DNA of 64,000 nt. Origin: Neophaeotheca triangularis (taxonomy: Eukaryota). Each line of letters opens with the position of its first letter. Position 1 is the first letter of the stretch. Below the pieces are notes generated by a model. It saw nothing but the letters and a program-made list of their open reading frames with translations. It was not told the DNA's origin and ran no database searches. Below are positions 13,784-61,031 of this stretch, piece after piece. The stretch lies in contig BAAIJX010000025.1 of assembly GCA_054600435.1 (NCBI GenBank), positions 1-64,000 of the forward strand, written 5' to 3'. The translations under genes were made by a program, and so were the position numbers.

Positions 13784-13882
13784 CGACCGAGGCAGGACTC
13801 GAACCTGCAGTCTTTGCCAGACTGGTGATGTCCACACAGGGATAACCGGAAAGCAACGCCTTAGCCATTAGGCCACTCGGCC
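13784..13882 (-). tRNA. tRNA-Arg(CCG) with ~26-nt intron
   Basis: GGCCGAGTGGCCTAATGG...TTGCT-TT-CCG-G[intron]T-GGCAA...GGTTCGAGTCC...CTCGGTCG; long T-run downstream on the minus strand. Confidence 0.92.
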
Positions 13883-25970: not shown

Positions 25971-28118
25971 GAGTATGGCACAAAGGATGAGCGAGCAGCA
26001 TGTGCGATTTAGCGAGGCGTCCACGGTCTACGGTCTGCAACGAGCCTTATGATCGGCCGTTGATTCAGGAAGCGATTACGCGATTATGAAGAGCTTGATA
26101 GTCAATCGATTTGTTGAGGCTTTTTTCCACGAATATGTTTTTTCCGAGACGGTCTTTCGGCTTTCACGAGATTTCCACTTGGTCTGGATACGCCGGACGT
26201 GTGGCTTGAGTACCTGCTATCCCCGTGGCCCTGCTCACGCCCGTGGCCCCTGTCCAGTGTCCATAATTTGTGGTTGGTTTGAGGCCTTCTGCACTGCTAT
26301 CGAATCACTCAGGACACCCTGGCGCAGCTGGAGCGGAGAGACCGGCGTACTCGTCTGACGTATCGATCTCGTACTGCGGTAGACGTCGCTATTCAGGCAC
26401 CACTTGACCACGACATGTTAAACGTCTCAGCCACGCCCTTTTTAGCCTGCGATACACGAAGCTCTTGGGTTGACTCAATGGACTTGGGTTGAAAGCCATG
26501 TCCGAATCCTTGCCAAGGAGCTCGTGCCTTGCAGGTATGCGTAAGCAATACATGCCGTGACCACGAGGTAAGTTCAACTACCTGTACACGTCCAAGATGA
26601 CCTTTTAGATCAACCTTCGTCTCGCTCCCGGTCTCTTCGAGGTACCGTCGGAACCTCAGGTGGGACAAACTGCACCCCACAAGCCATGGTGCATCCACGT
26701 TGTCGCCATGGCCGGGTATAGCTTCCGCACGGTACCCACTCATCATGGACAACAACCCATGTGACGCGCGAAGATGCTTAACACAGGCTCGTGCTGCTGT
26801 CCCAGCCTTCTTTTAGAAACGCTGAGATCTGGCCACTCGTTCAAAACACATTCTGGCTTGCTCGATCAGCCGTTGGCGTCTTCAGCCTTTCGAACCGAGC
26901 CAGCCTCGACGCTTCGTGACTGATGCTGACAATCGATTTGCAGACGCAAAGCTCCTACTGCTTACGCTTCCAATGATTGCACTGTTTAGAAATCTGATCC
27001 TGAAGCGGGCACATCACATGCCCTGCGGTAACATGTCTTCCTAGTACCTGCCGCCAGTCGCCTCGTTAGGACCGCGGGAGGTACATGGATATCCTTTGGA
27101 TCCTGTCGGTAAATCGCAGGCATAGGTTGTCGTCGCCATCTAAATTTTTTCGACATGTGGTTGTTATCTTAGGTTGGGGCACTGTGCTGGATGAACTGTA
27201 GATCGTTGGAGGCCTTCAGATATGCCTAAAACGACTGCTTCAGGGCTACTTGTCTCTGCTGTCTTTGGACAGCGCATCCCATACAGCGCCCAGGAACGGA
27301 TGCTGTGATACCATGCATGGTTGCTCTTCCCGACACTGGAGTCGTTTCATAGAGGCGTGGGCCCCTTGTCCCTACTGCATTCACGCATTCAGCGCGTTGC
27401 AGGGGAGCGATAATCTGCACTGCAATGCACGTCGTTCGCCTCCCAACACTACGGGAGGATGTATGCGCAGAGCTTGGTATCTATACTTTCTTCCGAGGGA
27501 GCATCTCTCTTGGCCGAGCTCTGATCCACGGCAAAGCGTTCGTAGCGAATTCTCCAAGGACGCAACCCTGCACTTACCAGGCACGATATGTCAACCTCCG
27601 ATATCGTGCATGTCAGCGTCGAGCAGCAGCACTCAAAAGTCACTGATGCAGGAACTCTTACGTATCGACGACGTCTGTGGCCTTTTCGAGGGAGAGAATC
27701 TCACTGACTACTTCTCGTGGCCTACATTTCTGTTGTCGACGTACATCGTTCTGGCTACACGGCCAAAAGACAGTTTAATCATTCCAGGCTGCTATTGGCG
27801 AAGACGTCTTGCTGCAACGATATGCAACACGACCGAAGATCAGAACAATTCCCGTGTGCGCCGCGCCATCTTCTGCTTGTTGTTCGGCGGTCATTAGACC
27901 TCGCAATAGATTCTCGCCCCTTTGAAGGGCAACATCGGCGAACTAGGCAATTCCCTGGGAAAAACATATATACTTGCTCCCTTGCACCCAGCAGCTCTTC
28001 CAACACTTCCAGAAACCAACACTCAAGGCCATCACCATCGCTAGTCCACTCGCTTACTAGCCCTCCAAAGTCATACAGTCGTCTCACAGCTCATACCACC
28101 CCCATTTCATCAGTAGCT

Positions 28119-29621
28119 ATGCGTTTCTCCAGCATCGTCACCGGCCTCTGCGTCATTGCAGTCGGCGTCCAGGCCTTCCCGGCCGAGACAGACTACAAGG
28201 ACAAGCCGGCCAGCACAGCCAAAGACAACGACCATGACGGAAACCCTGGGGGCAACCCTGGTGGCAACCCTAGCGGAACGCCTGGCGGCAACCCGGGAGA
28301 GGAGTGTCCCACCAAGACGGAGTTCATCACCACAAGTGGAGGGACCGTCACTCAGGCTGTCACGTAAGTGCAACTGATCCTGCTTTTAGTCATTACAGTC
28401 TCCTCGGCCTCTTGGAGCCTGTCCACCCTTTATGAGCTATAGCTCAGTTGTGCTCCCTTCTATTGGGAGTACCACTAGTCGTTGCTCATATTCCACGAGC
28501 TCTTTACTGACAAGCTGTCAGCGTCACGGAAGGCGGGCAATGCCCAACTTCGGAAGCTTGCCCTGTCAACCCCGGGGTCAGCGTCACGGTGACCGAGACA
28601 GAGCAGGGCACTTGTCCCACATCCGAGGCCTGTCCCGTCAACCCAGGAGCCAGCGTTACGGTGGTTGAGACGGAGCAAGGAAGCTGCCCAACTTCCGAGG
28701 CTTGCCCAGTCAACCCAGGCGCGACCACTACTGTCTTCAGAACTGAGCAGGGATCTTGTCCTACTTCTGAAGCCTGTCCCGTAAACCCAGGAGCAACCAC
28801 CACCGTCACCCAGACCGAGGAAGGAGCTTGCCCTACCGATGCTTGCCCAGTCAACCCCCCGAGTACTGCCACCGTGACTGAGACCATTTCAGGTGAAGTC
28901 GAGACTGTAACCAGTACAGAGCAAGGGGTCTGCCCGACCTCTGAGGAGTGCCCAGACGCCCCTGCACAAACGACTACAGTCACTCAGACCGAGACCGAGA
29001 CTGTCGCTGGTGGAGAGCCGACCGCCATCTCCAGCTGCACTGCTACGGAGACGTCGACTACGACGAGATACCGGGTACGTTGTTCCATGCGCTTCCGAGC
29101 TCGAACCATTCCCAGCGTAGTAACGAAACGTTCAAATCCGAATCACAACCCCCAAATAGTACCAAACCAGATTGCTCCCGCTAACTCATTTCTCCCGCAG
29201 GGACAAGAGGGCACACGAATCAGATGGCGTACCGCCACGGTCACTCGCACCGAGAGGGCCGCCGACTGCCCCTCGCAACCTACGCCAACGCAAGGTCACC
29301 AGACGAACAACTGTGGCGACAACACTCGAGGCTACTGCTGCACGGGTAATGATGCTGGGAACTGCCAGGCTATGGGTGGGGTTTTTTGAGCAAAAACTTG
29401 ACCTCGAGATCGAGACGGCTGACGCTTCACTAGATGGTTCGAAACGCATGTGCAATGGGAACGTTGTCTGCTGCAACGGCAAGGATGTAAGTTCCTGTCG
29501 ACCCTAGTTTGAAACTGCACTTACTAACTGGGAACAGTCTCTTCACACTTGTATGCGTGGTATCGCCGTCGGTGGCGGCCACAAAGGGGGCTGGAGCCGT
29601 AAGGGTGATGGATACAACTGA
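28119..29621 (+). CDS. Secreted repeat protein with C-terminal hydrophobin-like 8-Cys domain (5 exons)
   Basis: Signal peptide MRFSSIVTGLCVIAVGVQA; GNPG repeats; CPTSEACPVNPG repeats; introns 28364-28521, 29075-29200, 29376-29433 and 29487-29537 keep the frame and give C-X7-CC-X7-C-X9-C-X5-CC-X8-C. Confidence 0.8.
28530..28960 (+). repeat. Coding tandem repeat, ~72-bp (24-aa) unit, 5 copies plus 1 degenerate
   Basis: Repeated TEQGxCPTSEACPVNPGAxxTV units. Confidence 0.9.
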
Positions 29622-29899
29622 TGCAGCAATTGCGCCACGGCAGAAACCGGAAAAGTCTTGATGTGCGACGTTTAGGGTACAACAAACACACTCATTTGGC
29701 CAAGGACTTGATTGATGAATTAGCTAGCTAGCATTCTCCTAATGCTCCTAATGTACCATGGGCACAGTAGTGCAGGCATGGCCTCCAAAAAGAGTCCCGT
29801 GTACCTTCCCTTTCAGTGATGCTTCTGTCTGGCCGTGAAAGCTTGCGCCTATTTCACAATAATCTCGAGATCTGGCCGAATAGGTAAGTCTCGCTGATC

Positions 29900-31435
29900 G
29901 AACTACTGAGCGAGCTCGGTGATGAGCCTAGCATCGATGGGATCATAAAGATCCAGCAGCGTAGCACCGGGGGCTGGCGCTCTCGTACGTCAGCAAAGCC
30001 AATTGTCGATCGGTTAGTGGCGAACCACTGATGACTTGTCGTGATGCTGCGGTGTCGACAAGTGTTTTACTGATGGCTTGTTCGAGAACCTAAGACCAGC
30101 GACGTGAGCTTGTGTCGTCACCAAGATGTTGTAGTCCTTTAAACCAGAGACGAAGTGGTCTCTTAGGGCACCGTCTACATCTGTCGAGGCATCACCGGCA
30201 TGGATCTCAACCCACTTCCATCCGTATTCTTCGTCTCTGCATTTCCCCTTGAGCGCTGTGACGAGCCACTCGCAGAATTCCCTCCGGCCACACACGAAGA
30301 GAAACAAATCGTGGTCGGATGAAAGATCTTGCCGGTGTCGCAGTGTAGAGAGACAATGCTTAAGAGAGAGGAGGCGAGGGCGAGTGGCAATCCATTGCGT
30401 ATCGTGGAACCTCTTGGCTAGCGAAGGGAGATACTTCTCATTCCGTTCCTCATCTGCAACATCAACCAAAGCATGCGAAGTGCTGAAAGTCTCGTCGACC
30501 TTCAGAGTCGTTTCGAGCTTCCAGAACAGCCCGGAACCTCGCCCTGGTAGAGCAGTGCGGCAATCTGTCGCTCAATATCGTCCGAGACGCCGGACAAATG
30601 ACGATGAAAGAGCCACCCAGGGGTTCGGAAGCTAGAACGTACATCGTCTCACACACTTTTTTATGGCGGGATTGCTTCTGCTCAGTGATTGCTTGACCTC
30701 GTCCGTGATGAAACACTGAACGCTTTCCAGGTTGAGGACTTTAGAGCGTGAGAGTTGAACCAGGCGTCCTGCGGTGGCCACGACAGCATCGACAGGCTTA
30801 TAGCGACCGTGGGAATACTTTCGGGCCAAGATTTACGTCGCTCTGGGCTACCGTAGGCGCCCTGGAGCACTGACGGGACATTATCACGGGGTGCTTGGGT
30901 TTAGGCGTGCTAGGATGGCGTCGAGGTATTCTGCGGCTTGACACCAACCATGAGGGCGGCGGTTGGTTTTCCAACGCTGTGGGAGCCGGGAATGATGGCG
31001 GAATACCGTGAGCCAATCCTGGAGGTAGACGCTTGGGTGAGCTTGCTCTGGATCGGCCGTGGTGTGGGACCAACCTCGTCCATGATGGTGAAGAGTTCCC
31101 TTTCCAGCTACAGCGAGCCCCAGGTGCGTGAGTATGAGTTGATTCCCTCCAAAAAACACTGCCTTGATAGGCTCCTTCCTGGTGGGGCCAGCGTCCTTCA
31201 CTGTGGCGGCCACGGGGGAGTTTCGTTCGTGGACGTGATCGCCATCCAAATCGTGCTTCTTATTTGCGCTGGTACTCAGCAAGAAACGACGGATCGTCTC
31301 ACACAGTGGTTTAGGTGCGTACGATGCAGTGACGTCCGGTCTCGTAAAATCAAGTGCTGCAAATGGGGCGAGAACGACGACAGCACCAACGCCAGCGCAT
31401 GCCGTGCTTATCGATGAGACCCAGTTGTTGAGCAT
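29900..31435 (-). pseudogene. Degenerate DEAD-box RNA helicase
   Basis: Broken across frames: Q-motif-like TWGSL*LERELF...PTPRPIQ, eroded motif I SVGKPTAA, VVATAGRL..LNLESVQCFITDEV, C-terminal VEIHAGD...HFVSG...NILVTTQ..AGLRF; stops and frameshifts; boundaries approximate. Confidence 0.7.
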
Positions 31436-32104: not shown

Positions 32105-34480
32105 ATGACAAACCCAGCAGCGGAGCCGCCATCGCTGAAATGGTCGGCCCAATTCACCATCCCGCCATCGCCTCGAAGTAGAACACTTCCCGGCGATAAG
32201 ATCCTCCTACCACCCACCGCACTAGAACAGCTCCTCTCAGCCTCAGCGAACGTAGCCGCCGAAAAAGCGAGATCGGATCTACCCCAGTACGACCCTTACA
32301 ACTCCGCAACCTACTCCGCCTACAGACAGGCCGAGTCGCAGTATGAGGATCAAAGACACCAGCTCCCTTACCCGCTTACATTTCGCTTGGTAAATCCTGA
32401 GAATGGCAAGGCTTTGTATGCGGGCATTCGCGAGTTCTCAGCTGAAGAAGGGGAGGCTGTGTTGAGTCCTTTTATTCAAGAATCCCTGGGGTTAACTCAG
32501 GACGGAATTACTGAGGAAGATGGCGCTATGGCTATAGATAAGGATGGAAAGTCCAGCGAGCGGCCGCAAGGACCGACCATCACTATACACGCGAAGCAGC
32601 TTCCGAAGGGAACGTTTGTCAAACTACGGCCCCTGGAGGCAGGTTACGATCCCGAGGACTGGAAAGCGTTGCTGGAACAACATATGCGGCAGAATTACAC
32701 TACTTTGACCAACGGGGAGGTACTGGTAGTTCCCGCGGGCCGTGGGATAGATGGTAAGAAAGAGGAGTATCGATTCTTGGTTGATGGCTTTAAGCCGGAG
32801 ACAGATGGGGTTTGTGTTGTGGATACGGACATTGAGGTTGACATTGAGGCGCTTAACGAAGATCAAGCTCGGGAGACTATGAAACGGATAGCCGCGAAGT
32901 TGACAAAGATGCCAGGGAGTGAGCAGGGGAGCTCGCCGGACGGAGAACTGGATCTATTTGGGGAGCAACGGGGTCAGGTGTTGCCGGGGGAATATGTCGA
33001 CTACCAGTTGCCGTCTTGGAATCGGGCCCAGCCGGTCGAGTTTGAGCTTAACGCCGAGGACGACGAGGATGAGATAGATCTGTTCGTGAACCCTTTTTCC
33101 GCGACCCAGCGAGCGAAGCCAAGAGTCGACGAACATGTCTTCGCGGACCTCGATGGCCGGCCTCGGAAGCGAATACGCCTGGAACCTACCAACGTTGAGC
33201 TTGAGAACGCCGAAGCTCTATTCGTATCAGTGCATGCGTTTTCCCCCACAGTGCATACAAACGGCCACACAGATGATTCCAAGCAGTCCATGCCAAGGCA
33301 CTTCACGCTCCGCGCATCTCATCCAGAGCCAGCGACATCCTCCGCGCAGAACGACGAGTCACAGACCGAAGAACCTCCGAATCCGGACGAGGTACGTTGC
33401 AAGAATTGCCAGCAATGGGTACCTCAGCGCACGCTCATGCTCCACGAGAACTTCTGCCTTCGCAACAACGTCCTTTGCCCTCACGGCTGCGGTCAAGTCT
33501 TCCAAAAGCGGTCTCCCAAGCACGAACAGCACTGGCACTGTCCCCACGATACCTTTCACGGCAACACCATTCTTTCACAAGAGAAACATAACAAGCTCTA
33601 CCACCCACTTTCCCCCCTGCACTGCGGCGACTGTAGCACAGCGCAAGACTTCACCTCCATCCCACTCCTGGCCCACCACCGCACAACAACCTGCCCCGCG
33701 AAAATCATCCTCTGCCGCTTCTGCCACCTCGAAGTCCCTCAAGAAGGCGACCCAGACGTCCCAAACCCAGAAGCCTTGCTCTCGGGCATGACGCCGCACG
33801 AACTAGCCGACGGCGCACGAACAACGGAATGCCACCTCTGCTCCAAGATTGTACGTCTTCGGGACATGGAAACGCACCTCAGGAACCACGACCTGGACCG
33901 GCTTTCCCGCCCACCGCCGCAACCCTGCCGTAACGTTAATTGCGGCCGGACGGTGGACGTGTGCTCCAAATCTGGGGACACGAGAGCAGGCACGCGGATG
34001 GGTCAGGGACCAGGCAACGACATCGGCCTGTGTAGCTCCTGCTTCGGGCCGTTGTATGTCTCGCTCTACGATCCCGAGAACAAGGCTCTGCGGCGACGGA
34101 TAGAGAGGCGATATTTGCAGCAGCTTCTCACGGGTTGCGGCAAGAGCTGGTGCAGGAATGAGTTTTGCAAAGCCGGGCGGAAGAATTTGGGGGTCGGCGG
34201 GGATGTCACCACTAAAGACGCGTTGCCAATGGTCAAGCCGTTCTTGGAGGGCATGGCTAAGGGGCAAGCTACGCCTTTGCATTTCTGCGTCGATGAGAGT
34301 AGCCAGAAGCGGCGAATGTTGGCTGAGATGATGGCGGCGGAGGACGGAGGACCGTTCGGAAAAGGCGGGTACGAGCTTGAGTGGTGTGTCGGTGCGCTTG
34401 AGGCGGAGGGCGGAGACTTGGATGCCGCGAGAGGTTGGTTGAAGAACTGGGCGCCGGCAAAGGCCGAGGGTGGAAGATGA
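32105..34480 (+). CDS. UFD1-domain protein with zinc fingers and AZUL-like zinc domain
   Basis: GDKILLPPTALEQL, YAGIREFSAEEG, LPKGTFVKLRP (UFD1); CKNC..HENFC and CHLC..H fingers; RYLQQLLTGCGKSWCRNEFC (AZUL-like). Confidence 0.88.
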   Translation: MTNPAAEPPSLKWSAQFTIPPSPRSRTLPGDKILLPPTALEQLLSASANVAAEKARSDLPQYDPYNSATYSAYRQAESQYEDQRHQLPYPLTFRLVNPENGKALYAGIREFSAEEGEAVLSPFIQESLGLTQDGITEEDGAMAIDKDGKSSERPQGPTITIHAKQLPKGTFVKLRPLEAGYDPEDWKALLEQHMRQNYTTLTNGEVLVVPAGRGIDGKKEEYRFLVDGFKPETDGVCVVDTDIEVDIEALNEDQARETMKRIAAKLTKMPGSEQGSSPDGELDLFGEQRGQVLPGEYVDYQLPSWNRAQPVEFELNAEDDEDEIDLFVNPFSATQRAKPRVDEHVFADLDGRPRKRIRLEPTNVELENAEALFVSVHAFSPTVHTNGHTDDSKQSMPRHFTLRASHPEPATSSAQNDESQTEEPPNPDEVRCKNCQQWVPQRTLMLHENFCLRNNVLCPHGCGQVFQKRSPKHEQHWHCPHDTFHGNTILSQEKHNKLYHPLSPLHCGDCSTAQDFTSIPLLAHHRTTTCPAKIILCRFCHLEVPQEGDPDVPNPEALLSGMTPHELADGARTTECHLCSKIVRLRDMETHLRNHDLDRLSRPPPQPCRNVNCGRTVDVCSKSGDTRAGTRMGQGPGNDIGLCSSCFGPLYVSLYDPENKALRRRIERRYLQQLLTGCGKSWCRNEFCKAGRKNLGVGGDVTTKDALPMVKPFLEGMAKGQATPLHFCVDESSQKRRMLAEMMAAEDGGPFGKGGYELEWCVGALEAEGGDLDAARGWLKNWAPAKAEGGR

Positions 34481-36622: not shown

Positions 36623-37611
36623 ATGGCGAACAAGCGTGTCGAGCAAATCGCTGCCCACCTCAATTTTCCCAAGGGAATGCTTGTTGGGCAGGTAGCAATC
36701 ATAACGGGTTCAGGACAAGGCATTGGCGCAGAGGCAGCTAGACTGTTCGCCAAAGAGGGCGCAAAGGTTGTCGTCTCGGATATTGATGCTAGTAAGCAGA
36801 AGAGACCAAACACTCTCGAAAGGTGACGACGGTCTGACGGTACGACTATAGAGAAGTCGCAAGATGTAGTGGATAGCATCAACTCCGCTGGCGGCAGCGC
36901 TCTCGCCGTCCCCGGTGACATGCTGAGCGACGCCTACATCAACGAGCTTGTGAAGAAGACAGCCGAGTTTGGCAACGGCAAGATCCACATAATTGTCAAC
37001 AATGCAGGCTACACTTGGGACGGTGTGATCCACAAGGTAAGCGACTTCTGCAGCTCTCAAAGTCAGACAGTGCTGACAACAGCCGAAAGACCACGGACAA
37101 GCAATGGGACAACATCATTGCACTCCACGGTACTGCTCCTTTCAAGCTCGTTCGCGCAGCAGCACCCTACTTTCGCGTCAAGGACGGCGAGCCCAGGAAC
37201 ATTGTAAACATCTCCTCGACCTCTGGTCTGCACGGGAATGCCGGGCAAGCAAACTACGCCTTGGCCAAAGCTGGGGTAACAGGTCTTACCAAGACGATTG
37301 CGAAGGAATGGGGCCCTGCCTTTGGTGTCCGGGCCAACACGATTGCTTTCGGGTTCATCATGACTCGTTTGACGGCCGCGAAAGAGGAGGGAGCATTTGT
37401 GACAACACCGGATGGAGAAAAGGTGGCGTTGGGGATACCGCAGGCGCAGAAGGCGTCGAGGGAATCTGGGGATGCGGCGTTCAAGGACATTCCACTTGGC
37501 CGAGCTGGCACGGCCACGGAGGCAGCGAGCTCGATTCTGGCGGTAGTCAGTCCGTTGTTTAGCTATGTGAGCGGGCAGACGATTAGCGTGACGGGTGGGA
37601 GGAATTGCTGA
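36623..37611 (+). CDS. SDR, 3-oxoacyl-ACP/CoA reductase-like, with N-terminal PTS2 (3 exons)
   Basis: ITGSGQGIG, VNNAG, GQANYALAKAG; N-terminal RVEQIAAHL fits PTS2 R[LVI]x5HL. Confidence 0.92.
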
Positions 37612-48489: not shown

Positions 48490-50226
48490 ATGGCATCGAA
48501 TGACCCGGGCCTTGCGCCCTCGAGCGCACCAGCAGAAGACCCGACTCGTGGCGCAGTTGAAGAAGGAAAGAACGGCACCATCATAGAAGACGACCGTCCA
48601 GTGGCACCAGACCAACTCGACCCGAGATGGGAAACCACTAAGTGGGAAGTCTGGGCTTATTACAGCTATTACATTGGACACAACGGACTCGCGCTCTTCA
48701 ATTTTGCTCCCACGGCGGCGCAAAATCTGCTGTATCAACATGCCGAACGCATTGGCGGGGCTGGAAATGACATTATCGTCTTCGCTGGTGGTCGGAAAAC
48801 CATTAACTCTGTCATCTTACTTGCCAATGGATGGAGTTTTGCGATTCAAATCGTGGTGTTCCTGGTTTTGGGCTCCTTTGCCGATTTTGGGACGTTCAGG
48901 CCAAACATTCTCATAGTTCTCTCGATAATTGCATACGGCATCTCCTTCGGCTGGCTCGGAGTGCATACCGAAGAAGAATGGGAAGCAGGGCTGGCACTGT
49001 ACATTATCGGTCTCATCGCCTACCAGCTCTGCCTCACCTACTGGACGGCCGCATTTCCTGGCCTTGCGCGAAACACACCCCTCATGCGGACCAAAGCCGC
49101 CGAATTTGAGAGCGGTGATCTCACGCGTACAGAGTATGACCATGTAGACTCGATGAAACGCAACGAGATTGCCAACACGGCTTTTTACGTCCAGAGCTGC
49201 GGCGAGCTGGTTATATTGGCCGTCATTGTCGGCATCATGTTCGGAATCGACGTCAACGCCAGCACCGCGAACAACAATTGGGGGTTGAGCGTCCTCATTA
49301 CGTTCGCTACCAGTTGCTGGTTGCTGTTGAGCTTGCCGTGGTTCTGGCTGGAAAAGCGTCGACCAGGTCAAGACCCGGGTATGAATATCATCATCGCTGG
49401 GTTTTGGCAGCTGTACCGGGCTGTAACGCAAATCTGGCGGTTGAGGCAGAGTCTCTTCTATCTGATAGGGTACTTTTTGCTGGGAGATTCGCTAAACACA
49501 ACGGTTACCGTGATTGCAACTTTGCAGAATGAGATTGTCGCGTACAATACGCTGCAGCTGACTTATCTGCTCATTGTGGGTATTGCGGCGCAGGCGGTGG
49601 GTATCTTCGGTTTCTGGCAGATTCAAAAGCGGTATGGGCTCTCGACCAAGACCATGTTCAATGCCGTCGCTGTCGGCATCATAATTCTCGACGGTTGGGG
49701 GTTATGTGGGATTTGGACTGATAGTGAGTCGAGCAACATGGGCGGAAAGCAATCAATCTACAGCATGCTGACTTGAAAAGGATTCGGATTCCACAACCTC
49801 TGGGAAGTCTGGGTCTATCAGGCCTTCTATGGCCTCTTTGTCTGCCCCTGGTACAGCTACTCTCAGATTGTATGCTTGATTTCAACTCAATCCACTGACA
49901 GATCCGCTAACGAAATAACTCAGATGATTTCCGAGGTGACTCCCCGCGGCAAAGAGTTTCTCTTCTTCTCGCTCTTTAGCATCATCGGCAAGACTAGCAG
50001 TTTCATCGGGCCCTTGGTGTCTTCGGCTATCATCGACGCAAGCCCAAGTCACAACAACTCAATGCCGTTTGCATTCTTATTGGCGTTGAGTGTTGTCAGC
50101 GCTGCGTTCATTTTCTTCTGTGTCGATCTACGCAAGAGCCGGGAGGAGCAAGCGGTATTCTTGGAAGAGGAGAGGTTGGCCAAGACCAAGGTCGTCGGCC
50201 GGAATAATGAGGCCAAGGTAATTTGA
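48490..50226 (+). CDS. ATG22: Atg22-family vacuolar amino-acid efflux MFS transporter (3 exons)
   Basis: WEVWAYYSYY, LEKRRPGQ, YFLLGDSLNTT, MISEVTPRGKEFLFFSLFSIIGKTSSFIGP; multiple TM helices. Confidence 0.88.
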
Positions 50227-50628
50227 TGGTCTGCTATGTAGGATTGGAGCCTACCGAGGTATCTACTGTATGTAGAAGTTGATTACGCGCCGTGACCGCC
50301 AGCTCAGGAGCGGATCTCAAGTGTCTGGCGGCTTCCGTTGGTGTTTGGCAGCAACGCGACTTACTCATATCTGGCAGTCTGACATCGCGAATTGCAAGAG
50401 CAAATACCGGACTCGAATCCAGAGTCTGAGGTGCGTACCCTTTGCTATTGCCCGGCTGCGTTTCGTTGGTCATGTACCGAGCGGCTGGTATTCTTTACTT
50501 CAACACTATCTGGAAAACGGGGGGCATACTGGATCACTTCTCCCGCAGCCTGTAGAATTACTCAAGACTTCGATAAAACTAGATAGAACTTCTAGCTACC
50601 ATTGGCAAATCAACATCGAGCCGTTGCA

Positions 50629-52017
50629 ATGGTGTCTACGGTAGACCCAACAGGAAACACCCTTCCTCGTAACAAGCGGTTTGCGAATGGTCATCCACTG
50701 CAAGATTGTGCTTCCCTCCAGCTCAAACACGAGACAGTTCATGGACCCATCCAATTCCTCGACCCAACCCGCGCTCATTACGATCATGTGTTGTCGGCAG
50801 GAATACCCTCTTCTAGCGATGGCTCGCCAGAAACCACATCGTTGGACGGCCCTACAATCACCGAAGACCCGGGGAAGCCGGCCACGAACATTAGCTACAT
50901 GTGGACATCGCGTAACAACCGCAAAGGAAGGCATGCTATGATTGTCAAGCCTCGCGAGACCGCCAACACCGAATACCATACCCCTCCCGTTACTTCGTCT
51001 CCGAGAGAAGTTGCTCGCGGCATCTGGAGGATGCTCACGTACTACCCAGTCTGGGATGTGTCATACCTTGTTGCCTTTATCTTCACTTGGGGCAGCGTTA
51101 TCTGGGTCATCAACGGCTTCTTAATTTTTTTACCCCAGACCAACCCCGGAAGCGTGACCAAGCATCAGGAGGAATACGGAGGCGGTATCACAGCGTTGAT
51201 TGGCGCGACCGTCTTTGAGATTGGCAGTGTCTTGTTGATGCTGGAGGCCGTGAACAAGAATCACGCCGGCTGTCTTGGTTGGGCGATCAAGCGCATTCCT
51301 CACGACCACAGCTCTCGATCAACGGATCAGGGTCTGCATACCCATCACGTCGTTCCAGACCACAATGCCTGTACGCATCACCACGCGAATCGCGGCAGCC
51401 TCGTCGGCCCTACCAAGACGACTGGTTCAGAGAGCGCCATCGTGTCGACAGAAAAGACAGAAGACATTATTCGCTCCTGGTCATGGATGCCAACCCGCGA
51501 TGAGCTGCGCACTAAATATCTCCACGACATCGGCTTCATCGCCAGCTCGTGGCAAATGTTCGGGGCCACCGTCTTCTACATCTCCGGCTTCACGTCCATG
51601 CCTAGCATTCACAATAGCCTCTCCCCGACGTCCAAGCTCGTTCTCTACTGGGTTCCTCAGATCATTGGGGGTACCGGCTTCATCATCAGCGGCACTGTGT
51701 TAATGATCGAGACGCAGCGGCATTAGTGGTTGCCAGCGCCGCGGAGTCTCGGTTGGCACATTGGTGCTTGGAACCTGGTGGGTGGTATTGGTTTCACGCT
51801 TTGTCCGCTCTTTGGGTTGTACGAGAGTGAGGAGCGACCTTGGGTGAAGTTTCAGGTCATGTGCAGTACATTCTGGGGTGAGTGGTTTCCGAATTGTCAT
51901 TGATGGCTGGGCCAATGCTGACTTGCTTCCGAAGGTAGCCGGGCCTTCCTTGTAGGAAGTGCTATCCAGTGGTACGAGAGTTTGGAGAAGTATCCCGTCG
52001 AGAAGGAGAGGGTGTGA
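50629..52017 (+). CDS. Integral membrane protein (YrhK-like repeats) interrupted by in-frame TAG at 51724-51726
   Basis: WTSRNNRKGRH, YPVWDVSYLVAFIFTWGS, FEIGSVLLMLEAVN; after TAG the frame continues WLPAPRSLGWHIGAWNLVGGIGFTLCP...STFW, intron 51878-51934, then GSRAFLVGSAIQWYESL. Confidence 0.8.
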
Positions 52018-53789
52018 ATGGATCGAGGCCCGTGAGAGACGTATTCTTTCTATGCACCTACTGTAGGCACGCAGCATTAGCTCTGCTACCAAGCCCAAAC
52101 CCGAACCCTCAAGACGACTTCATTTCTAAAACTCATAGAAGGTATAGCACCCTGCCCACGGCGGCTCGGACTTGGCAAGCGGCTCCTCTTCTCCAGGCTT
52201 CCGTCAAGCAATGACCGAAAGCGACTGATGAAAAGTGCAATTGTGGTGAACCATCAAAAATTCCACCAGTGAGGCCCCCGAAGGAGACTCATGCAGAGAC
52301 TCTACCGCGCTGTGCAATGCAGAGAGTCTCCACACCCGGAAGGCATGCGTGAGCGCCCACGGGCTGGCAAGGTAAGTATGGAGAGAGAAGAGAGGAAGAG
52401 GAAGCCGGCAGGAAGGGCAACTTGGTTTTGTGCCTGCGTGAAGCCCGTGCATGTCACTAGCGTGATGGCTTGTTCCGCTGAGCGTGATCAAATATTCGCT
52501 TGCGCTGAATTTCGCCTGAGGCACCCCTTTAGTGAATCCAGGACGCACAAGTCTATCCTTTGTAGCAGAATCAATGGCGTGCGACGGGTATGACTGTGAA
52601 CCCTCACTTATAGCCAAGCATACTATCAGACTACCACCTCGAGGTCCATGCCAATCTCAAGCATACCTTTTACAATCCGGTTGCGGCGGTCGACGAAGTT
52701 GTCTTGAAGCCTCGGTCCGGAGCAGGTGCTAGCCTCAGCAGCTCGTTGCGGTAGTCAAACTCCCATTTAGCCGCCGCACATTTCAACGCTTCGTTTGTAC
52801 CTCAGACTGAGTGTAGGAGATCAGGAGGCAAGAGAAGACAATACACCACCGGCTTTGCCTAGTCACTAACTCCTCCACAATCAACCATTGGGACTTATGC
52901 TTCACGAACTTAAAGCAGTAACAGGAAATCCGCAGCATCATTGTTGAACTCTGACCGTCCTGTTTCGATCGAGCAAACTCATTAGCTAACAACGACTTCA
53001 TGTAGGCGTAAGTGAATCATCCGAAGACAGAGAGCTAGGCTTGGGCGACGTGCTCTTGATCAACATATCTCCGGTGACTAGACAAATGCGGGGCAGAGAC
53101 CACTGGTCATCTTTAGTCAGTAGGATCTCGTCAATGGTCCCCTGCAACCTACATGCATATGGTAAGGGGCACGCAGAGCGCTTCTCTTTGTTGAGGCGTA
53201 TATGTGCCCCCATAGACAAGACAGGGTCGTCGAGCGACACACAAGCTTTCTAATCAAGAACAATGGCCTTTGACTGCCACTCCCTCGTTGAGTGGTATCC
53301 TGATTTGGTCACTGTTAGATTCTAGTTATCAGCGACTTCGATGCTAAGAAGATGTCCTTGAACAAGGTTGCGCAGCCTGTGCTTGTTCAAAAGGAGATGG
53401 CAACGGTGGCTGGATCCCTTACGGCCTTTCAGCTATGGTCGCTGGTATCCTATTGCCCTTAGTGTCGTCCGAGGATCGAGAAATGAGTACATCAATGATG
53501 CCCAATTCAATCAACCTGAACACCTTAGGTCACTAGGCTTCTCACTCAACTGCATGCAAAATCGGTCGAGGGTACGCGCGGAAGTAAGCGTGCCATGGAC
53601 CGATTTTGCATGCACATGCTTGGCTTCTGTAAACAGGATAGACCACTTATTTCTGACGCTGGACGCGAAAAGGTGTCTGATGCCACAAAGCCCAGAGCCA
53701 CGGTGAAAATAAATAAGACAGGTAGATCAAGTCATACGTAATTCGTGAGATCGTGGCAATCGCCCCCTTGCTGCGTTCAACGAGACTTC

Positions 53790-55673
53790 TCACCAAGAAT
53801 ACTGCTCAACAGCCACGTCCACATCCATACCTCGCCGCACAAGACTAGCACATGTATTGCGGACAGACCGGTTCATGCCATCTGGCCCTGAAACAACGAC
53901 TCCAGCAGTCCCGCTTTCCTCCAGGGACTCGGATACTATCCCGCCCACCATTCCTGAAACGTCAGGCCTGCCATGCGTCGCTGTAGGGCTCGGCACGACG
54001 AGGTTGAGACCCTTATCCTTCAGCTCGTCCAGCCGTTCCTGCCCTAGCCAAGAGACGTGAGATGCCTCGTGAATCACCCAAATGAGGTAGACTCTCTGGC
54101 GTGTAGAGGCCGTCTCAGCGTCAGACCTACCGTCGCAAAGCAAGCTCCATAGCAATGGATAAGCGACGGCAATTCCAGATCCTCCTGCCACGATTATGCT
54201 GAGGTCGCTCGACCGCAGCATTTCCAAGGCGTGCAAGGAGCCGTATGGCCCGTCTAGCCGAACGGCAACGGAAGCATACATCCTGGCGTACTCGAGTAAA
54301 TCCCTTGAAAAGCCATCGTGAGCTCGGACAATGAGGTTGAACCAGGCATGTGACTGGTCTTTGCCTGGCGCTGCTGATGCTATAGTGAAAGGATGGGCTT
54401 GGACGATGTGCTTGCGCGCCAACGCAGGGACGGTGAGGAAGATATGCTCAGACGGCCGCCAGCCGCGAGCTGTACTGAGAACGTCGCGTCTCGTAAACCA
54501 GCTGGATAGGCTGATTGCTGTTGTGGGCCAGTCTGCGGATACCAAGACCGTCTCAGCATCTTCCATTACGGTCAAGTCGGCCCGCACGGTTCGAGTCTTC
54601 AGCAGCAACCTGAAAATTAGCCGATCGATTAGAAACACGGCCAGAGTTATGGCTACATAGGTACGGCATCCTTGGTGATGGAACCAAAGGAACACCAACG
54701 CAGCCGTCTGTAGCACGACATGCAGCGCAAGGAACAACTCGTACCATCTCTGACGAAAGCTTGCGAGAGAGGTCAAGTAAAGTATCTCGTAGCATGCAAA
54801 CGCACCAATGCCAAGCAAGATGATCTTCAGGAGCAGGAAATGCCAGAGGGTCTCTCCCGATGGTCGAAAGTAATACCACCAGGTAACGAGCATGCTAGCT
54901 CCGTGGACTACGGCGAGGGAGCACAAGATTTCTCCCAGACGCCGATGAAGGATGTTGAGACTTTCGTAGGAGTGGCCAGTCAGATGCTTGAGGGGCTGGT
55001 TCTTGGCCGAAAGGATGTATAGCCATGGTAGATTCGCCACAAACAGCAAGCCACTGCGGTCGCCCAAAGCGAATGACATGGGTGCGGTTATTGGGATCTT
55101 GTAGAAAGTATACCACACATTTAAGCCGAGAACCGTGAATACCATCAATGTCGTGGCGTTCGAGGGCAGCTTCTTGTTCACAATGGGGATTGGCCGCGGT
55201 TGGTACATCAATGCGGCTGGCAGGACTGCTATGATGCGACTAATCGAAGACGGGGGATCGCGTGCGTGATATTCATGAAGCAAAGGAGCCCGTTGGTCGC
55301 CCTCGTCTTTGTTCCATAGTGGTGGCGTTGCGTTACCCTCCAAGGTACTGCTCGAAGAGCTCGAAGAGAATGTATTGCTCGGTGATGTTGCAGTCGTAGT
55401 ATTGGCACTTCGAGCAGTCTTTACGCCATTCCTATTTCTCCAGCGGCGGCGTTGTTGCAACACAATGTTGAGATGCCACAGCGAGAAGAACAGGACTACA
55501 CCGAGCAGCGCGATCTGATAAGTAACGATGAACCACTGGTTGAATGCGATCAACGCCCGTAACTCGCGCTCGGTCTCATCAGCATCTCTCGGGGACTTAG
55601 TGACGACTTCATTCCTGCCATCTTTCGGTCCCTCCACGATACCGAATGAAGCACTGAGAGGGAGGCTCTCCAT
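53790..55673 (-). CDS. Ferric reductase-like transmembrane protein (FRE/NOX family)
   Basis: Heme histidines LNILHRRLG / VVHG / LALHVV / WFHH; FAD HPFTIAS; DGPYG; NADPH VAGGSGI; ends EQYSW. Confidence 0.92.
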   Translation of the reverse strand: MESLPLSASFGIVEGPKDGRNEVVTKSPRDADETERELRALIAFNQWFIVTYQIALLGVVLFFSLWHLNIVLQQRRRWRNRNGVKTARSANTTTATSPSNTFSSSSSSSTLEGNATPPLWNKDEGDQRAPLLHEYHARDPPSSISRIIAVLPAALMYQPRPIPIVNKKLPSNATTLMVFTVLGLNVWYTFYKIPITAPMSFALGDRSGLLFVANLPWLYILSAKNQPLKHLTGHSYESLNILHRRLGEILCSLAVVHGASMLVTWWYYFRPSGETLWHFLLLKIILLGIGAFACYEILYLTSLASFRQRWYELFLALHVVLQTAALVFLWFHHQGCRTYVAITLAVFLIDRLIFRLLLKTRTVRADLTVMEDAETVLVSADWPTTAISLSSWFTRRDVLSTARGWRPSEHIFLTVPALARKHIVQAHPFTIASAAPGKDQSHAWFNLIVRAHDGFSRDLLEYARMYASVAVRLDGPYGSLHALEMLRSSDLSIIVAGGSGIAVAYPLLWSLLCDGRSDAETASTRQRVYLIWVIHEASHVSWLGQERLDELKDKGLNLVVPSPTATHGRPDVSGMVGGIVSESLEESGTAGVVVSGPDGMNRSVRNTCASLVRRGMDVDVAVEQYSW

Positions 55674-55960
55674 GGACAACGAAGGTGAGGGAGAGAGAAC
55701 GAGGGCGGAATGAGGATGGACGTGGTGAAACGGAGGACGGCGGCTGCAGCGGGAGCCAGCTGCATTTTTATCAGATCCATCTAATCTGCCGCGCCTTGTC
55801 GCCAAGCCAAGCTAGCTCCTCCCGTCGGAAGCGCACAAGCTCGAAAAGATACCTACCCTTTACCGAGCAGCTTTTTGCGACTTCAAACTTCTTTTCTTCT
55901 CCAGCGACCAACGAAAAACCCGGACACACCACAAAGCTCGACCAGCACAACTCCGTCGCC

Positions 55961-57287
55961 ATGGCCCCTCAGAAGCACCAGTCGTCTGTCAAGACGTATG
56001 TCACCACTCTCACAACCGCAGGAGCCTTCGGGTGAAGAGTTGCAGCACAGTCGGTCCGCTCAAGATTTGCTTGCTCCTATGCAGCATCCATACATACACA
56101 CACATGCACTCCAGTCCTGCACGTAGTCAAACTCTGACACGTCAGAATGTGGAGTGCGTTGCGCATCCATGTCGAAAGGCATTGGCAGCATCTCGCTCAG
56201 CGAGGCTTTGTCGGATGAGCACCGCCCATGGTGTCTCACCGATGAAATTCCACTCTTCATGAGTGTGTTGCGGAGAATGCATGAGAGCCAGACCACTGTG
56301 CCGCAATTCTTCGCTCGGAGCTTCATAGCTTCAAGCGGACCGACTGACAGTGTTGTATAGGAGCGTCCCTACCCAGGACCAGATCCTCGTCCCCGAGACT
56401 CTTCTCAAGAAGCGCAAGTCCCAGGAGAAGGAGCGCGCCCAGAAGCAGGAGGACCGTGACGCCAAGAAGAAGGTAAGCAGCAGCATGAGCTTTTCCTTTT
56501 CCCCCTGCGTAGTGATGATATTTACCCAACCTCGGCTAGCCTTTTTGCGATGCTGCCTGTTTGTTAACCATCTTTCGGGACTGATACACCCCCCTCTTCA
56601 CCATTTGCATCTCGTTCAGCTTTGTACGAACGCTGGTTGCTGACAGTGCAATTCCAGGAGAACAAGCAGAAGCGCGACCAGATCTTCAAGCGTGCCGAGT
56701 CCTACGTCAAGGAGTACCGCGATGCAGAGCGCGAGAAGGTCCGCTTGGCCCGTGTTGCAAAGCAGGAGGGCTCCTACTACGTCCCCGCCGAGCCCAAGCT
56801 CGTCTTCGTTATGCGTATCAAGGGTATCAACAAGATCGACCCTAAGAAGCGCAAGACCCTGCAGCTCCTCCGTCTCCTCCAGATCAACAACGGTGTCTTC
56901 GTCCGTCTGACCAAGGCTACCGTCGAGATGCTGAAGATCGTCGAGCCCTTCGTTGCCTACGGTTACCCCAACCTCAAGTCCGTCCGCGAGCTCATCTACA
57001 AGCGCGGATACGCCAAGACTGAGGGCAAGCAGCGCACTCCCCTCACCGACAACGCTGTCATCGAGGAGAACCTCGGCAAGTACGGCATTGTCTGCATGGA
57101 GGACTTGATCCACGAGATCTACACCGTCGGCCCCAACTTCAAGCAGGCCAGCAACTTCCTCTGGCCCTTCAAGCTCAGCAACCCCACTGGTGGCTTCAGG
57201 CCCCGCAAGTTCAAGCACTTCGTCGAGGGTGGTGACTTGGGCAACCGCGAGGAGTACATCAACCAGCTCATCAGGCAGATGAACTAG
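55961..57287 (+). CDS. RPL7: 60S ribosomal protein L7 (uL30); exons 55961-55995, 56361-56472, 56658-57287
   Basis: [73 protein letters not shown]. Confidence 0.97.
56509..56587 (+). ncRNA. Box C/D snoRNA (snR39/snR39B/snR59 family) in RPL7 intron 2
   Basis: Box C GTGATGA 56512-56518, box D CTGA 56581-56584, GTA/TAC stem; guide ACCATCTTTCGGG complementary to LSU rRNA CCCGAAAGATGGT. Confidence 0.88.
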
Positions 57288-57810
57288 GTTGTCTAGCTGA
57301 ATGCGCATCCTCGGCGTCGAAGAGTTTCAGGCTCTGCTGGACGGGATGCTGTCATCTAGTTAGCGTCAAATGCAGGTACTGGCGCCTCGTTGCGTCTAGA
57401 CTTTGAACTGCTAAAATTGATACCCATTTTCACTTCCTTTGATCCTGATATTGTTTATATGTGTGCTGTGGGTTGGAAGTGCCGTCTGATACAAGTGCCA
57501 ATTCTGTACAACCTAAGGACAACCTGGAAGGTTTCCATCTTGCTCTCTGATAGCTCGAGTCATATATGATATGTCCCATACGAGAGGACTACAATGTACC
57601 TCTCAAGGGTGATCGGTCCTGCGAGTTGGCAAATGGCTTTACATAAAACCTGTTCTCCCTCTACGTACATACCTGCGAACTTGACTACAAGTAGGGCTTG
57701 AACTGAATGAACGTTACAGCGTCTGGAGTTCTCAAGGGCATCAACAAACAGCCCACTCCATTCTCAAACAGCAAAAATCTAATTGAAAGCGAAAGGAAGA
57801 GCAAAAAAAC

Positions 57811-57912
57811 TGGACGAGATGGGTTTCGAACCCATGACCTTTCGCAGACGGCGAATTTCAAGTGAAGATTCTTGTATGCAAAGCGAACGCGCTACCACTG
57901 CGCCACACGCCC
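57811..57912 (-). tRNA. tRNA-Ala(TGC) with intron
   Basis: GGGCGTGTGGCGCAGTGGTAGCGC, TTCGC-TT-TGC-A[intron]T-GCGAA, GGTTCGAAACC, G3:U70 pair, downstream T-run. Confidence 0.93.
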
Positions 57913-58544
57913 CGGTCGTGATGGACATGCTTTCCGAGCATTAATTGTATATAATCCAAGACAATCTAGGGTTAGGGTTGGAGAATCTACAGAATGCGGA
58001 CTATACCACATTCCATTGGTCGGTCGGTGCTAATATCACGTTGTAGTCTCTCTCAGCAACGGACATAAGTAATCGAAGTGAGTCCCTGCGGACTTGAAAA
58101 GGTCTTGAGTTGAGGAGGACTAACATCTGTTGGGGACGGTTAGGATTTGCCTGACCACCTCGATAGATTTGTTTACGGGCCGGTAACTCACATTTTACAT
58201 CGTAGCTACCTAGTAGGACTAGTAGACAATGCCATTAAATGTGCCATGCATCCCTCTAAAGGATCCCAGGTAAGCCCCGGGGGTGACAGCACGATAAGGG
58301 ATTGTATGCCCGTTTCCTCTTCATACGTCGCTCAACTGAGCAGCACTTGCTCGTAACGGGACCTTGAGAATGGCTGCTTCCTGAGCCATCTCGCCACTGA
58401 CACGCTGGTCGAAAGAAGTCCATGCCAACAGCGGCCCCGGAGCTCGCTATCATCAAAAGGCTACCAAGGTGAAATCGAGCAAGCCGTCGGGAACATCCAC
58501 TCATCTCTTTATCTCATTGAAGCAGCAGTATCCAGCAGAGCAGT

Positions 58545-59757
58545 ATGACACACCCATCACGAGCCGGTAAGACGGCAAGAAATGGACCTGGCACCTTCCA
58601 CTACAGCAGGATCTGGAACAGCGAGGTCCACCAACGAAGGATGAGGCTAGTTGCGTACCAGCTCGCCATCGCCTTCAGTGTCGCATCTGGGGCACTAGGC
58701 ATCGCCGTCGTGATAGGTGAGTAGTGCTCTCAGAGCCGTCGGCCGAAGCAGTGGACGGTTCAAGCGTCAGGTCTCAATATTGACTCACTCCCAGCAGGTA
58801 GACCTGGTAGCAAAGACATCTTGCACGACCCCAACAGCCTCGAAATGATTCACTACCGCGACTACATCGTCATGGCCACCATCAATGCCTTAACAGGGCT
58901 CTTCATCGGGATCGTCTACGGCAGTGCTACTATCCTCGAACTCTGCCATCCCTGGCGCAAAGCAACACGCTACGTTCGCATGGCTTAGAGAGCCTGCTCC
59001 ATTTTGACGATCATCCTCGGCCTTGCCTCTGCCCTTGTGCTGACACTGGCGACGTTCGATGGTACATGTCACGAGAGTGGCGGCCTCGAGGATAGCGGAG
59101 GAGGGAGAAACCGGGACGGCTGCCGGCTACCACCGTATAAGCACCAAGCAGAAGCCATAGCTGCCGTGGCATTGGTCTGGCCGGCCTGGGTCTCGAGCTG
59201 TATCAGGTAAGTGAAGGAGAATTGCCGCCCTGGTATCTCTTGCACTAATGTCGATTTGCAGCTGTGTCCTTCTTCTCCACTCAACGCGTGACCGGAAGCA
59301 ACTTGGAAGCACTCACCGACCAGACCGCTGGCGCCAAGTCCCAGCACGTGACCGTGACACAGAGTCTGACAAAGAGAGGGAAGACGACGAACACCCACCT
59401 GGTCCTCGAGCCTCAACCGCCGTTACAACTACCGACACGCCGCCACGGCCTACTCAGCAAGTTGTGGAAAGCGTATCGCTACCCGAGGACTCTGTACACC
59501 TGACCCCAAGGCGTTCGCCGTGCACTTTGATGCCACCGAACCCGGCACCGCCTGAAGGGGAGTTGGACGACAGCGGGATCACGCACGAAAGCGATTTCAG
59601 TACCATGGCCAAGGGAGGAGGACGTGTTGAGAAGTTTACCTCGCAATTGAGGCCGCTGGGTAGCCTGAAAACCGGAGGTAGTGTCATACAACTCAGTCAC
59701 AGAAGTTTGGCGGCTTTGACGAGCGGTGTTGCTGGGGCAACTCGAGACTGTCGTTGA
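58545..59757 (+). CDS. Four-TM fungal membrane protein interrupted by in-frame TAG at 58986-58988 (3 exons)
   Basis: Exon 1 ...RLVAYQLAIAFSVASGALG; exon 2 ...ELCHPWRKATRYVRMA*RACSILTIILG...AIAAVALVWPAW; exon 3 SCVLLLHS...; canonical introns preserve the frame. Confidence 0.65.
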
Positions 59758-59971
59758 GAGGGCTGAGATGCTGCGGTATTGGTTCTGTGGTATCAAATTT
59801 GAATTGCTGTACTAGAAGTCAAGTGTTATTGTGTACAAGTTGAGAAGCACAGGAGGCGAGAGTCTCGTAAAGCCAAACATTCTCCACGTCAAACGTCCCT
59901 TCAACCCTCAGGATTCCATAGACATTATACAAACCCCAACGCCCTCGCTCAAGGCCAAGTATCCTCCCCAA

Positions 59972-61031
59972 TCAATTATTCTTCCTTCTAGCCATCTCCT
60001 CCCTAACACCACCTCCACTTGCCCTGTACCACACATCACCACCCCACCTCACCATTCGCTCCGCCGCCGCCACAGGTCCATCCACAGCCGGCCTCACGTC
60101 CAAGAAGAACACAGGCTCTCCCGTCGGTTCCGGCGGTCCACTGTAATAATCAATCACGTACCGCCTCTCCTTGGCCTCCCCATCCTGACCCTGCCTCGCG
60201 ACAAACCAATCGTGGCGGTCAAAAGGCGGGTTATCGGGAAACTTGGCCGGGTACAACCAAGCCATGAACCCCATCATCCTCGCCTTGGGGGTCATTTCGC
60301 TCGGCCGGCCCATGAACCGCAGCAGCTTCGGCTCCGGCGCCTGCTCCCTGTCTCTTGCACTCCGCATTGCCTCAATAGCCAACGCCCTCTGCGCCCCCTC
60401 TTCGCCGTGCTTACACAGCTCCCAGCCCCTGCCCAGCCCACCCGCGAATCGGCGCTCCCACTCCCGAATCTCCTCCCAAGCGCCCTCGTTGAGGAAATTG
60501 TGCACGGCGACCATGGACTCGACGTGCTCGGCGGGAGTGTCGGTGTATCCTTTCCGCAAGAGCGCGTTGTACATTTGCTGCGGCGAAGGGTATTCCCAGG
60601 TCGCGCCTTGGAGGTCCCCGCGGGGGATGGTCGAGGCTTCACGCTCGAGGGGCAGCGAAACGCTTTGTTCTTTGGCTTCGCGCGTGTTGGAGATAGAGGT
60701 CGGCATGTAGTTCAGGGGGTTGAGCTTGGAGATGTAGGAGGGTGTGGGAGTCGGAGCGGCCGGGCTCTCGGAGGATTCGGGGGGAACGTAAGGGCAAGCG
60801 CTTGAGGGGGAGGTCGGTTGGGTTACGGCGGAGGGTGCGGGTGCGGGTGTGGGTGCGGTTGAGTTTGAGGGTTGGTGCATAGGGCATCCTGGCTACAGAA
60901 GAATGTTAGTATTGGTAGATATAGTGCTGATGCGGTTGCCGTACGGGTGGTGACGCATCTCCTCCTTTCGGTATTGGATGAGGCGCAACGGGTTGTGATG
61001 AGGACGTCGAGTCTGTCCAAAACCAGCCCAT
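59972..61031 (-). CDS. CYC3: Cytochrome c heme lyase (holocytochrome c synthase), 2 exons
   Basis: MGWFW start, CPM/CPY heme motifs, [46 protein letters not shown]. Confidence 0.92.

Follow-up and report, generated by a model that had tools for sequence, protein, structure and literature searches.

Two membrane-protein genes interrupted by an in-frame TAG codon

We analysed 64,000 nucleotides (nt) of the genome of the fungus Neophaeotheca triangularis (contig BAAIJX010000025.1 of GenBank assembly GCA_054600435.1, positions 1 to 64,000 of the forward strand; this whole stretch is called the window below), in which two unrelated membrane-protein genes on the plus strand each carry one in-frame TAG codon, at 51724 and at 58986, about 7.26 kb apart. 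The species is placed in the class Dothideomycetes, order Neophaeothecales, so that the guess of a first-pass annotation of this DNA, which had called the genome Dothideomycete-like, is borne out; we know of no sexual state for it. We recognise about 27 protein genes in the window, most of them with full-length domain matches and long intact frames, and its frames of 1213, 810, 673 and 624 codons are intact and have full-length Pfam matches. A review of hypersaline black yeasts describes N. triangularis as a halophilic black yeast from salterns; a search of this one review found no passage on a sexual state of the species. The parts of the two genes are as follows.

Gene 1, member of a fungal 'integral membrane protein' family that lacks a Pfam model; 443 codons if read through
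50629-52017, plus strand, whole gene
50629-51877, plus strand, exon 1, with the ATG at 50629
51724-51726, plus strand, in-frame TAG, codon 366, within the motif ETQxHWWxPA; the candidate edited A is at 51725
51878-51934, plus strand, intron of 57 nt with canonical signals (GTGAGT, branch site CTGAC, AG)
51935-52017, plus strand, exon 2, with the stop TGA at 52015-52017

Gene 2, which belongs, as a divergent member, to a MARVEL-like family of four-helix membrane proteins in fungi; 359 codons if read through
58545-59757, plus strand, whole gene
58545-58716, plus strand, exon 1, with the ATG at 58545
58717-58794, plus strand, intron 1, canonical, containing an in-frame stop
58795-59206, plus strand, exon 2, which bears the TAG
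58986-58988, plus strand, in-frame TAG, codon 122, within the motif VRxAW-K/R; the candidate edited A is at 58987
59207-59261, plus strand, intron 2, canonical
59262-59757, plus strand, exon 3, 165 codons, with the stop TGA at 59755-59757

At site 1, the TAG of gene 1, the DNA reads CAT TAG TGG TTG CCA (51721-51735; flank as it stands in the window, GCAGCGGCATTAGTGGTTGCCAG), in a frame that is open for 376 codons (50596-51726) up to the TAG and then for 58 more codons. At site 2, in gene 2, it reads ATG GCT TAG AGA GCC (58980-58994; flank, TCGCATGGCTTAGAGAGCCTGCT), with 87 codons up to the TAG, 73 codons after it, and a 180-codon frame beyond a short intron. The first-pass annotation had stated that both TAGs are in frame, with canonical introns and coding-like frames downstream, that both share the context T-T-A-G-N-G, and that tryptophan (Trp, W) is expected at both. 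All of this was reproduced: both TAGs lie in exons, the introns are canonical, the downstream frames are intact, the shared context is present at both sites, and homologue alignment places each TAG in a near-invariant W column. Neither gene has a lesion other than its TAG, the introns, downstream frames and natural stops being intact, and one of the features of stop-correcting editing sites, an in-frame TAG at a Trp position, is present in both. Placement of either TAG inside a missed intron was ruled out by ungapped colinear alignment in highly conserved motifs.

Conservation of the two tryptophans and state of the genes

In the family search with gene 1, 638 homologues were found at E ≤ 0.001, of which the best 120 were listed. 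All 21 aligned homologues have W opposite the TAG of site 1, with no gap there, and counting by motif among the 119 listed non-self matches gives W in 118 and C in 1. The closest non-self match among those listed, P0003, is 64% identical to gene 1 and has W in the TAG column, and none of the 119 listed non-self matches ends or carries a stop at site 1. A metagenome scan for relatives of gene 1 returned two distant loci (53% and 47% identity), whose DNA reads TGG at site 1 in both cases. Of the 127 conserved columns upstream of the TAG, 106 are kept in gene 1 and 114 in P0003. Downstream of the TAG, the last exon has a CGG codon for arginine (51940-51942, plus strand) in the last hydrophobic segment, where, of the 90 homologues whose models include the last exon, 85 have W, 4 have F and 1 has L; this is a radical change, and to judge from the alignment it may be a sign of relaxed constraint. 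By hydropathy and alignment, the TAG lies just past the hydrophobic segment at residues 342-360 and ahead of the last two segments conserved in the family. The database protein model P0002 has 365 amino acids and ends exactly at this TAG. A Pfam search with the exons of gene 1 gave no significant match, and the only resemblance suggested by a protein atlas, a YrhK-like one (0.86 by features), is remote; we take it as a lead without assigning the family.

Exon 2 of gene 2 matches 58 proteins at E ≤ 0.001 in an exhaustive search of representatives; a different, 'longer' search with this exon found nothing. In the 30 aligned homologues, the TAG column at site 2 holds W in 29 and C in 1; the nearest relative, 37% identical, has W, and among the homologues listed none shares a stop or truncation at this site. 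The database model P0125, listed as a hypothetical protein of N. triangularis, comprises 121 amino acids and ends exactly at the TAG, and its exon junction matches the present model. Upstream of the TAG, gene 2 keeps 9 of 23 family-conserved columns, vs. 15, 20 and 22 of 23 in three control members of the family, a loss that, judged from the sequences, suggests weak constraint on the ancestral function; downstream, 4 of 5 conserved columns are kept, and the start of exon 3 is weakly colinear with a homologue (E 0.03 in a single comparison). The TAG falls, by hydropathy, where the third hydrophobic segment of four begins. We call the family MARVEL-like only, because its homologues score below the Pfam cut-off for MARVEL (PF01284; best 25.8 bits, cut-off 32.8); no match at or above the gathering score was obtained, and the exons of gene 2 itself have no MARVEL match. 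The nearest atlas cluster is named "MARVEL domain-containing protein" (0.97). At E ≤ 1, the sole Pfam match to the exons of either gene is Neurokinin_B on gene 2 exon 2 (E 0.19), which is at chance level. The acceptor of intron 1 in gene 2 is a tandem CAGCAG (58793-58797, plus strand), either AG of which is in frame, one alanine codon apart; the database model takes the first.

Both families are multi-copy in related fungi, with several matches from one species. Because both TAGs precede membrane-spanning segments that are conserved in the respective family, the truncated products would lack these parts. We further estimated how long a gene would escape a second lesion, assuming an indel-to-substitution ratio of 0.1 and neutral evolution downstream of the TAG: the probability of finding no second lesion falls to 5% at a divergence d that bounds the age of the lesion at d < 0.032 for gene 2 and at d < 0.083 for gene 1. 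Since a second disabling mutation is expected soon under neutrality, either the TAGs are probably young or the downstream frames are still under selection.

Stop codons elsewhere in the window

With the codon usage of the long open reading frames (ORFs) of the window, TGG to TAG changes account for 5.0%, 7.9% and 11.3% of the single-base routes to a stop codon at transition:transversion weights of 1, 2 and 4, respectively. The window contains 268 stops with at least 40 open codons on each side, of which 49 have coding-like flanks. Pfam-supported genes lie on the opposite strand of 30 of these 49 candidates; 5 more are natural ORF ends or in-frame introns, 3 belong to the two genes considered here (both TAGs and the in-frame stop in intron 1 of gene 2), and 11 fall in none of these classes. 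Pfam was applied to 27 of the 49, and a domain crosses the stop in two of them, both of which are in-frame introns.

Known editing of fungal stop codons, sequence context and predicted hairpins

According to a review, genome-wide adenosine-to-inosine (A-to-I) editing of mRNA occurs in Fusarium, Neurospora and Sordaria (Sordariomycetes) and in Pyronema (Pezizomycetes), and the passages concerned report that Aspergillus nidulans and Botrytis cinerea yielded none; about 70 genes of F. graminearum need correction of UAG to UGG. Which other classes of Pezizomycotina edit remains to be determined, as the reviews put it in the sections on this point. Where editing is described in these sources, it is specific to the sexual stage. 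A paper on the machinery, in the sections we draw on, states that Tad2/Tad3 edit together with Ame1, that the Ame1-Tad3 interaction arose in Sordariomycetes, and that Pyronema's editing is taken to be independent. A paper on restorative editing gives, in the corresponding sections, 71 such genes in F. graminearum, with premature TAGs that derive mainly from TGG by G>A and have arisen within Sordariomycetes, and adds that premature stops at several of these sites are also found in species of other classes. A full-text literature search that combined A-to-I editing with Dothideomycetes or pseudothecia returned, supplements aside, no report for Dothideomycetes in the texts it covered.

The flanks favoured in F. 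graminearum, as given in the passages on site preference, are C or U at -2, U at -1, a purine at +1, +3 and +4, and G at +2, with C and A depleted at +2. By these preferences, site 1 (UU-A-GUGG) has 5 of 6 preferred positions and none that is depleted, and site 2 (UU-A-GAGA) has 5 of 6 preferred positions and one that is depleted. The first-pass annotation had offered this context as an argument for editing, and the flanks do fit. The argument itself adds almost nothing, since the flanks are dictated by codons: the U at -1 and the G at +1 are part of any TAG codon, the -2 base of site 1 is the wobble base of a histidine codon and is always C or U, positions +2 to +4 of site 1 form the conserved Trp codon that follows, and those of site 2 an arginine codon where the family has lysine or arginine. 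The context is therefore weak evidence for editing, because the flanking bases belong either to the TAG or to neighbouring conserved codons.

In F. graminearum, 62% of editing sites are reported, in the passage on structure, to lie in predicted hairpin loops when 30 nt are folded on each side. The A of site 2 is predicted to lie in a 3-nt hairpin loop (GGCUU-AGA-GAGCC) with flanks of 20 and 30 nt and in a stem with flanks of 50 nt; the A of site 1 is in a hairpin loop with 20-nt flanks only. The same test places 182 of the window's 564 plus-strand UAG triplets (32%) in hairpin loops, and hairpin placement is non-discriminating.

Origin of the two stop codons

Both TAGs being ordinary, evolutionarily young nonsense alleles is the likeliest single reading of these data, though by no great margin, and we hold it tentatively. 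Two independent G>A transitions would have turned TGG into TAG in two membrane-protein genes that would be dispensable and variable between lineages, and neither codon would be recoded. The product of gene 1 would then comprise 365 of 443 residues, without the two final hydrophobic segments that the family conserves, and gene 2 would yield 121 of 359 residues and keep two of its four helices; both truncated products are most likely inactive. The mutations would be recent, that of gene 2 falling within about 3% neutral divergence, as a second lesion would otherwise be expected, and the intact downstream frames are compatible with such a recent origin. We favour young nonsense alleles because the database models P0002 and P0125 end at the TAGs, because gene 2 has lost most of its conserved columns upstream of the TAG and a W>R change is present in gene 1, because the known editing machinery is reported as Sordariomycete in origin, and because the prior for stop-correcting editing is low in a Dothideomycete with no sexual state known to us. 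The review of hypersaline black yeasts reports clonality for the related Hortaea werneckii, which fits this reading. As far as the families have been sampled, the lesions are private to the lineage, because no listed homologue shares a stop or truncation. The two genes resemble ordinary young nonsense alleles or unitary pseudogenes in having a single, lineage-private G>A lesion in multi-copy, lineage-variable families, one of the genes being strongly diverged.

Several observations pull the other way. If two lesions had arisen by generic nonsense decay, the probability that both are TGG>TAG would be about 0.3-1.3%, and it would be about 4% even with G:C>A:T transitions only (our own arithmetic from codon shares). 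Unlike the usual pattern of young nonsense alleles, both lesions are of the same uncommon type and lie 7 kb apart, with no other kind of lesion found in the window; two lesioned genes at a distance of 7.3 kb are in themselves unusual. Among the roughly 27 genes of the window we found no further clear exonic stop, in a survey in which frameshifts were not searched systematically and genes without Pfam matches were not checked thoroughly. Past its TAG, gene 1 still has 25 of 26 columns with a conservation of at least 90% among the family, as many as the intact P0003, and gene 2 has 238 open codons past its own, including the 165 of its last exon.

Several of these observations speak for editing, or for some other process that specifically produces or tolerates TGG>TAG. 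Under editing, a deaminase of the ADAT type (adenosine deaminase acting on tRNA; Tad2/Tad3-like) would convert UAG to UIG, read as Trp, in some stage or condition, and full-length protein would be made only then. We regard this as possible, though less likely than young nonsense alleles. It would explain why the TAG sits exactly at a near-invariant Trp in two unrelated genes, as the sole lesion in otherwise intact frames, with the downstream conserved columns of gene 1 kept and with two of two lesions of a type that is improbable under generic decay. It also agrees with the flank preferences of F. graminearum at 5 of 6 positions in both sites, apart from the one depleted position at site 2, and with the predicted loop at site 2 with 20- and 30-nt flanks. 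The 71 F. graminearum genes whose TAGs come mainly from TGG count in its favour, as do the premature stops at such sites in species of other classes, and the reviews leave the editing classes of Pezizomycotina open in the sections cited. However, the flanks are largely forced by codons, a loop is found for about a third of the plus-strand UAG triplets of the window and at site 1 with 20-nt flanks only, most residues conserved in its family are lost from gene 2, the W>R change follows the TAG in gene 1, and neither TAG is shared by any listed relative. The Ame1-Tad3 interaction is reported as Sordariomycete, and editing as not found in A. nidulans or B. cinerea, in the passages already named, which also tie it to the sexual stage. 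In a calculation that assumes premature stop codon (PSC) sites in about 0.5% of genes if editing occurs, a young lesion in about 1% of genes otherwise, and the TGG>TAG shares given above, the likelihood ratio of editing to generic decay is roughly 10-200. From a prior of a few percent this would lead to a posterior for editing of about 10% to well above 50%, which are soft numbers. For N. triangularis, as stated, we know of no sexual state.

When compared to the PSC editing of F. graminearum and N. crassa (PUK1, AMD1 and the 71 'PSC pseudogenes'), the likeness consists in a genomic in-frame TAG at a codon that is Trp (TGG) in relatives, in a gene that is otherwise intact, with U at -1 and purines at +1, +3 and +4; one target is, as AMD1 is, a multi-pass membrane protein. 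Unlike those cases, the host is a Dothideomycete, the sites are known from DNA alone, and the relatives have W, the nearest being 64% (gene 1) and 37% (gene 2) identical; the machinery of Fusarium and Neurospora consists of Ame1 with Sordariomycete-specific interface residues and of short Tad2/Tad3 isoforms. Sexual-stage editing in Pyronema confluens (Pezizomycetes) is fungal mRNA editing outside Sordariomycetes, probably of independent origin, and a further independent origin is conceivable because P. confluens edits outside that class. The P. confluens case rests on RNA sequencing with verified sites, whereas that of N. triangularis rests on genomic sequence.

The remaining explanations concern the way in which the TAGs arose, their reality, and their translation. 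The TAGs may not be the normal state of the organism, being substitution errors of the assembly, variants private to the culture, or alleles that a heterozygous or hybrid genome carries beside TGG; we consider this improbable. One assembly was analysed, and strains differ, a second sequencing run of the same organism sharing 0.64 of sampled 31-mers, which corresponds to a divergence of about 1.4%. For H. werneckii, many wild strains are reported to be heterozygous diploid hybrids. Two random errors that both strike the middle base of a conserved Trp codon are very unlikely, however, and given the long intact frames of the window, which is not error-ridden, assembly error is unlikely. Slightly less probable still is an event resembling repeat-induced point mutation (RIP), or another strand-coordinated C>T event, that hit this stretch, CpA>TpA on the minus strand being TpG>TpA on the plus strand. 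Such an event would account for two TGG>TAG changes on the plus strand 7.26 kb apart, in the preferred dinucleotide context, W>TAG making up about 29% of the nonsense outcomes (our own arithmetic, with W at 1.6% and glutamine at 4.0%). RIP, however, needs duplicated DNA and a sexual cycle, and across 50-60 kb the TpA/ApT index is 0.65-0.88 and the (CpA+TpG)/(ApC+GpT) index 1.12-1.28, which is in the normal range, the usual thresholds for RIP being above 0.89 and below 1.03, respectively; the G+C content is 0.50-0.57 throughout the window, with no AT-rich block. In 2-kb bins around the genes, neither the dinucleotide indices nor the G+C content show a bulk RIP footprint, and no repeat search was made. 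Bulk RIP was rejected on these normal indices and the even G+C content, with which a very light event would be compatible. RIP is said to leak into single-copy genes in Leptosphaeria maculans; the present changes would be like that leakage in their CpA>TpA context, shared strand and clustering, and unlike it in the missing AT-rich block and the normal indices. Of the competing explanation proposed in the first-pass annotation, RIP-like or ordinary nonsense decay by CpA>TpA on the opposite strand, the base change and ordinary decay as the likeliest cause stand, and the RIP part finds no footprint in the region. The 58001-60000 bin, in which gene 2 lies, has a TpA/ApT of 0.88, which is within the normal range and the second-highest value in the window, the highest being 1.00 at 28001-30000.

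Translational bypass, in which a suppressor tRNA or programmed readthrough would put an amino acid at UAG, is very improbable. Nothing specific favours it beyond the presence of a tRNA gene between the two genes, and that tRNA has an anticodon that we read as UGC (alanine) and a canonical intron. Other genes end at ordinary stops, and the bases past the two stops (UAG-UGG and UAG-AGA) are unlike the readthrough motifs familiar to us. A CUA anticodon occurs in none of the tRNAs called across the window, and local suppression is not supported.

Significance of the two sites

The two sites are concrete candidate editing sites, each of a size suited to PCR, in a cultured fungus. The range of editing among the classes of filamentous ascomycetes is a gap stated in the reviews, and the machinery is argued, in the paper on it, to have arisen inside Sordariomycetes. 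If the two TAGs are edited, editing would extend to Dothideomycetes; N. triangularis, a halophilic black yeast, would then stand for a third lineage of fungi, probably independent, in which editing corrects stops, here in at least two membrane-protein genes, and in a species in which no sexual stage is known to us it might be tied to stress or meristematic development and not to fruiting bodies. If the TAGs reflect plain decay, pairs of TAGs at Trp positions arise without editing, which matters wherever a TAG in frame at Trp is used to recognise editing in a genome. For annotation, both genes are currently modelled as truncated proteins.

Other features of the window

Two further genes have in-frame introns with canonical signals, and reading the raw frame would mistake the TGA in each for a premature stop:

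36792-36851, plus strand, in-frame intron of 60 nt in a short-chain dehydrogenase gene, carrying TGA
49724-49780, plus strand, in-frame intron of 57 nt in an ATG22-like gene, carrying TGA

The tRNA gene between genes 1 and 2 and two tRNA-like calls elsewhere are:

57811-57912, minus strand, intron-containing tRNA, Rfam 56.3 bits, anticodon UGC (alanine) by reading, G3:U70; not reported by ARAGORN
13782-13875 and 33517-33610, minus strand, two tRNA-like ARAGORN calls of 94 nt, one Thr(TGT) and one with an undetermined anticodon, beside or inside TauD-like and UFD1-like genes

Apart from the tRNA between the two genes, the tRNA calls of the window are Gln(CTG), Thr(TGT) and an uncertain one. A marine metatranscriptome run contains about 6% (0.06) of the sampled 31-mers of 50600-59800, and the part covered may be the conserved ribosomal protein L7 gene or the tRNA and not either of the genes with a TAG.

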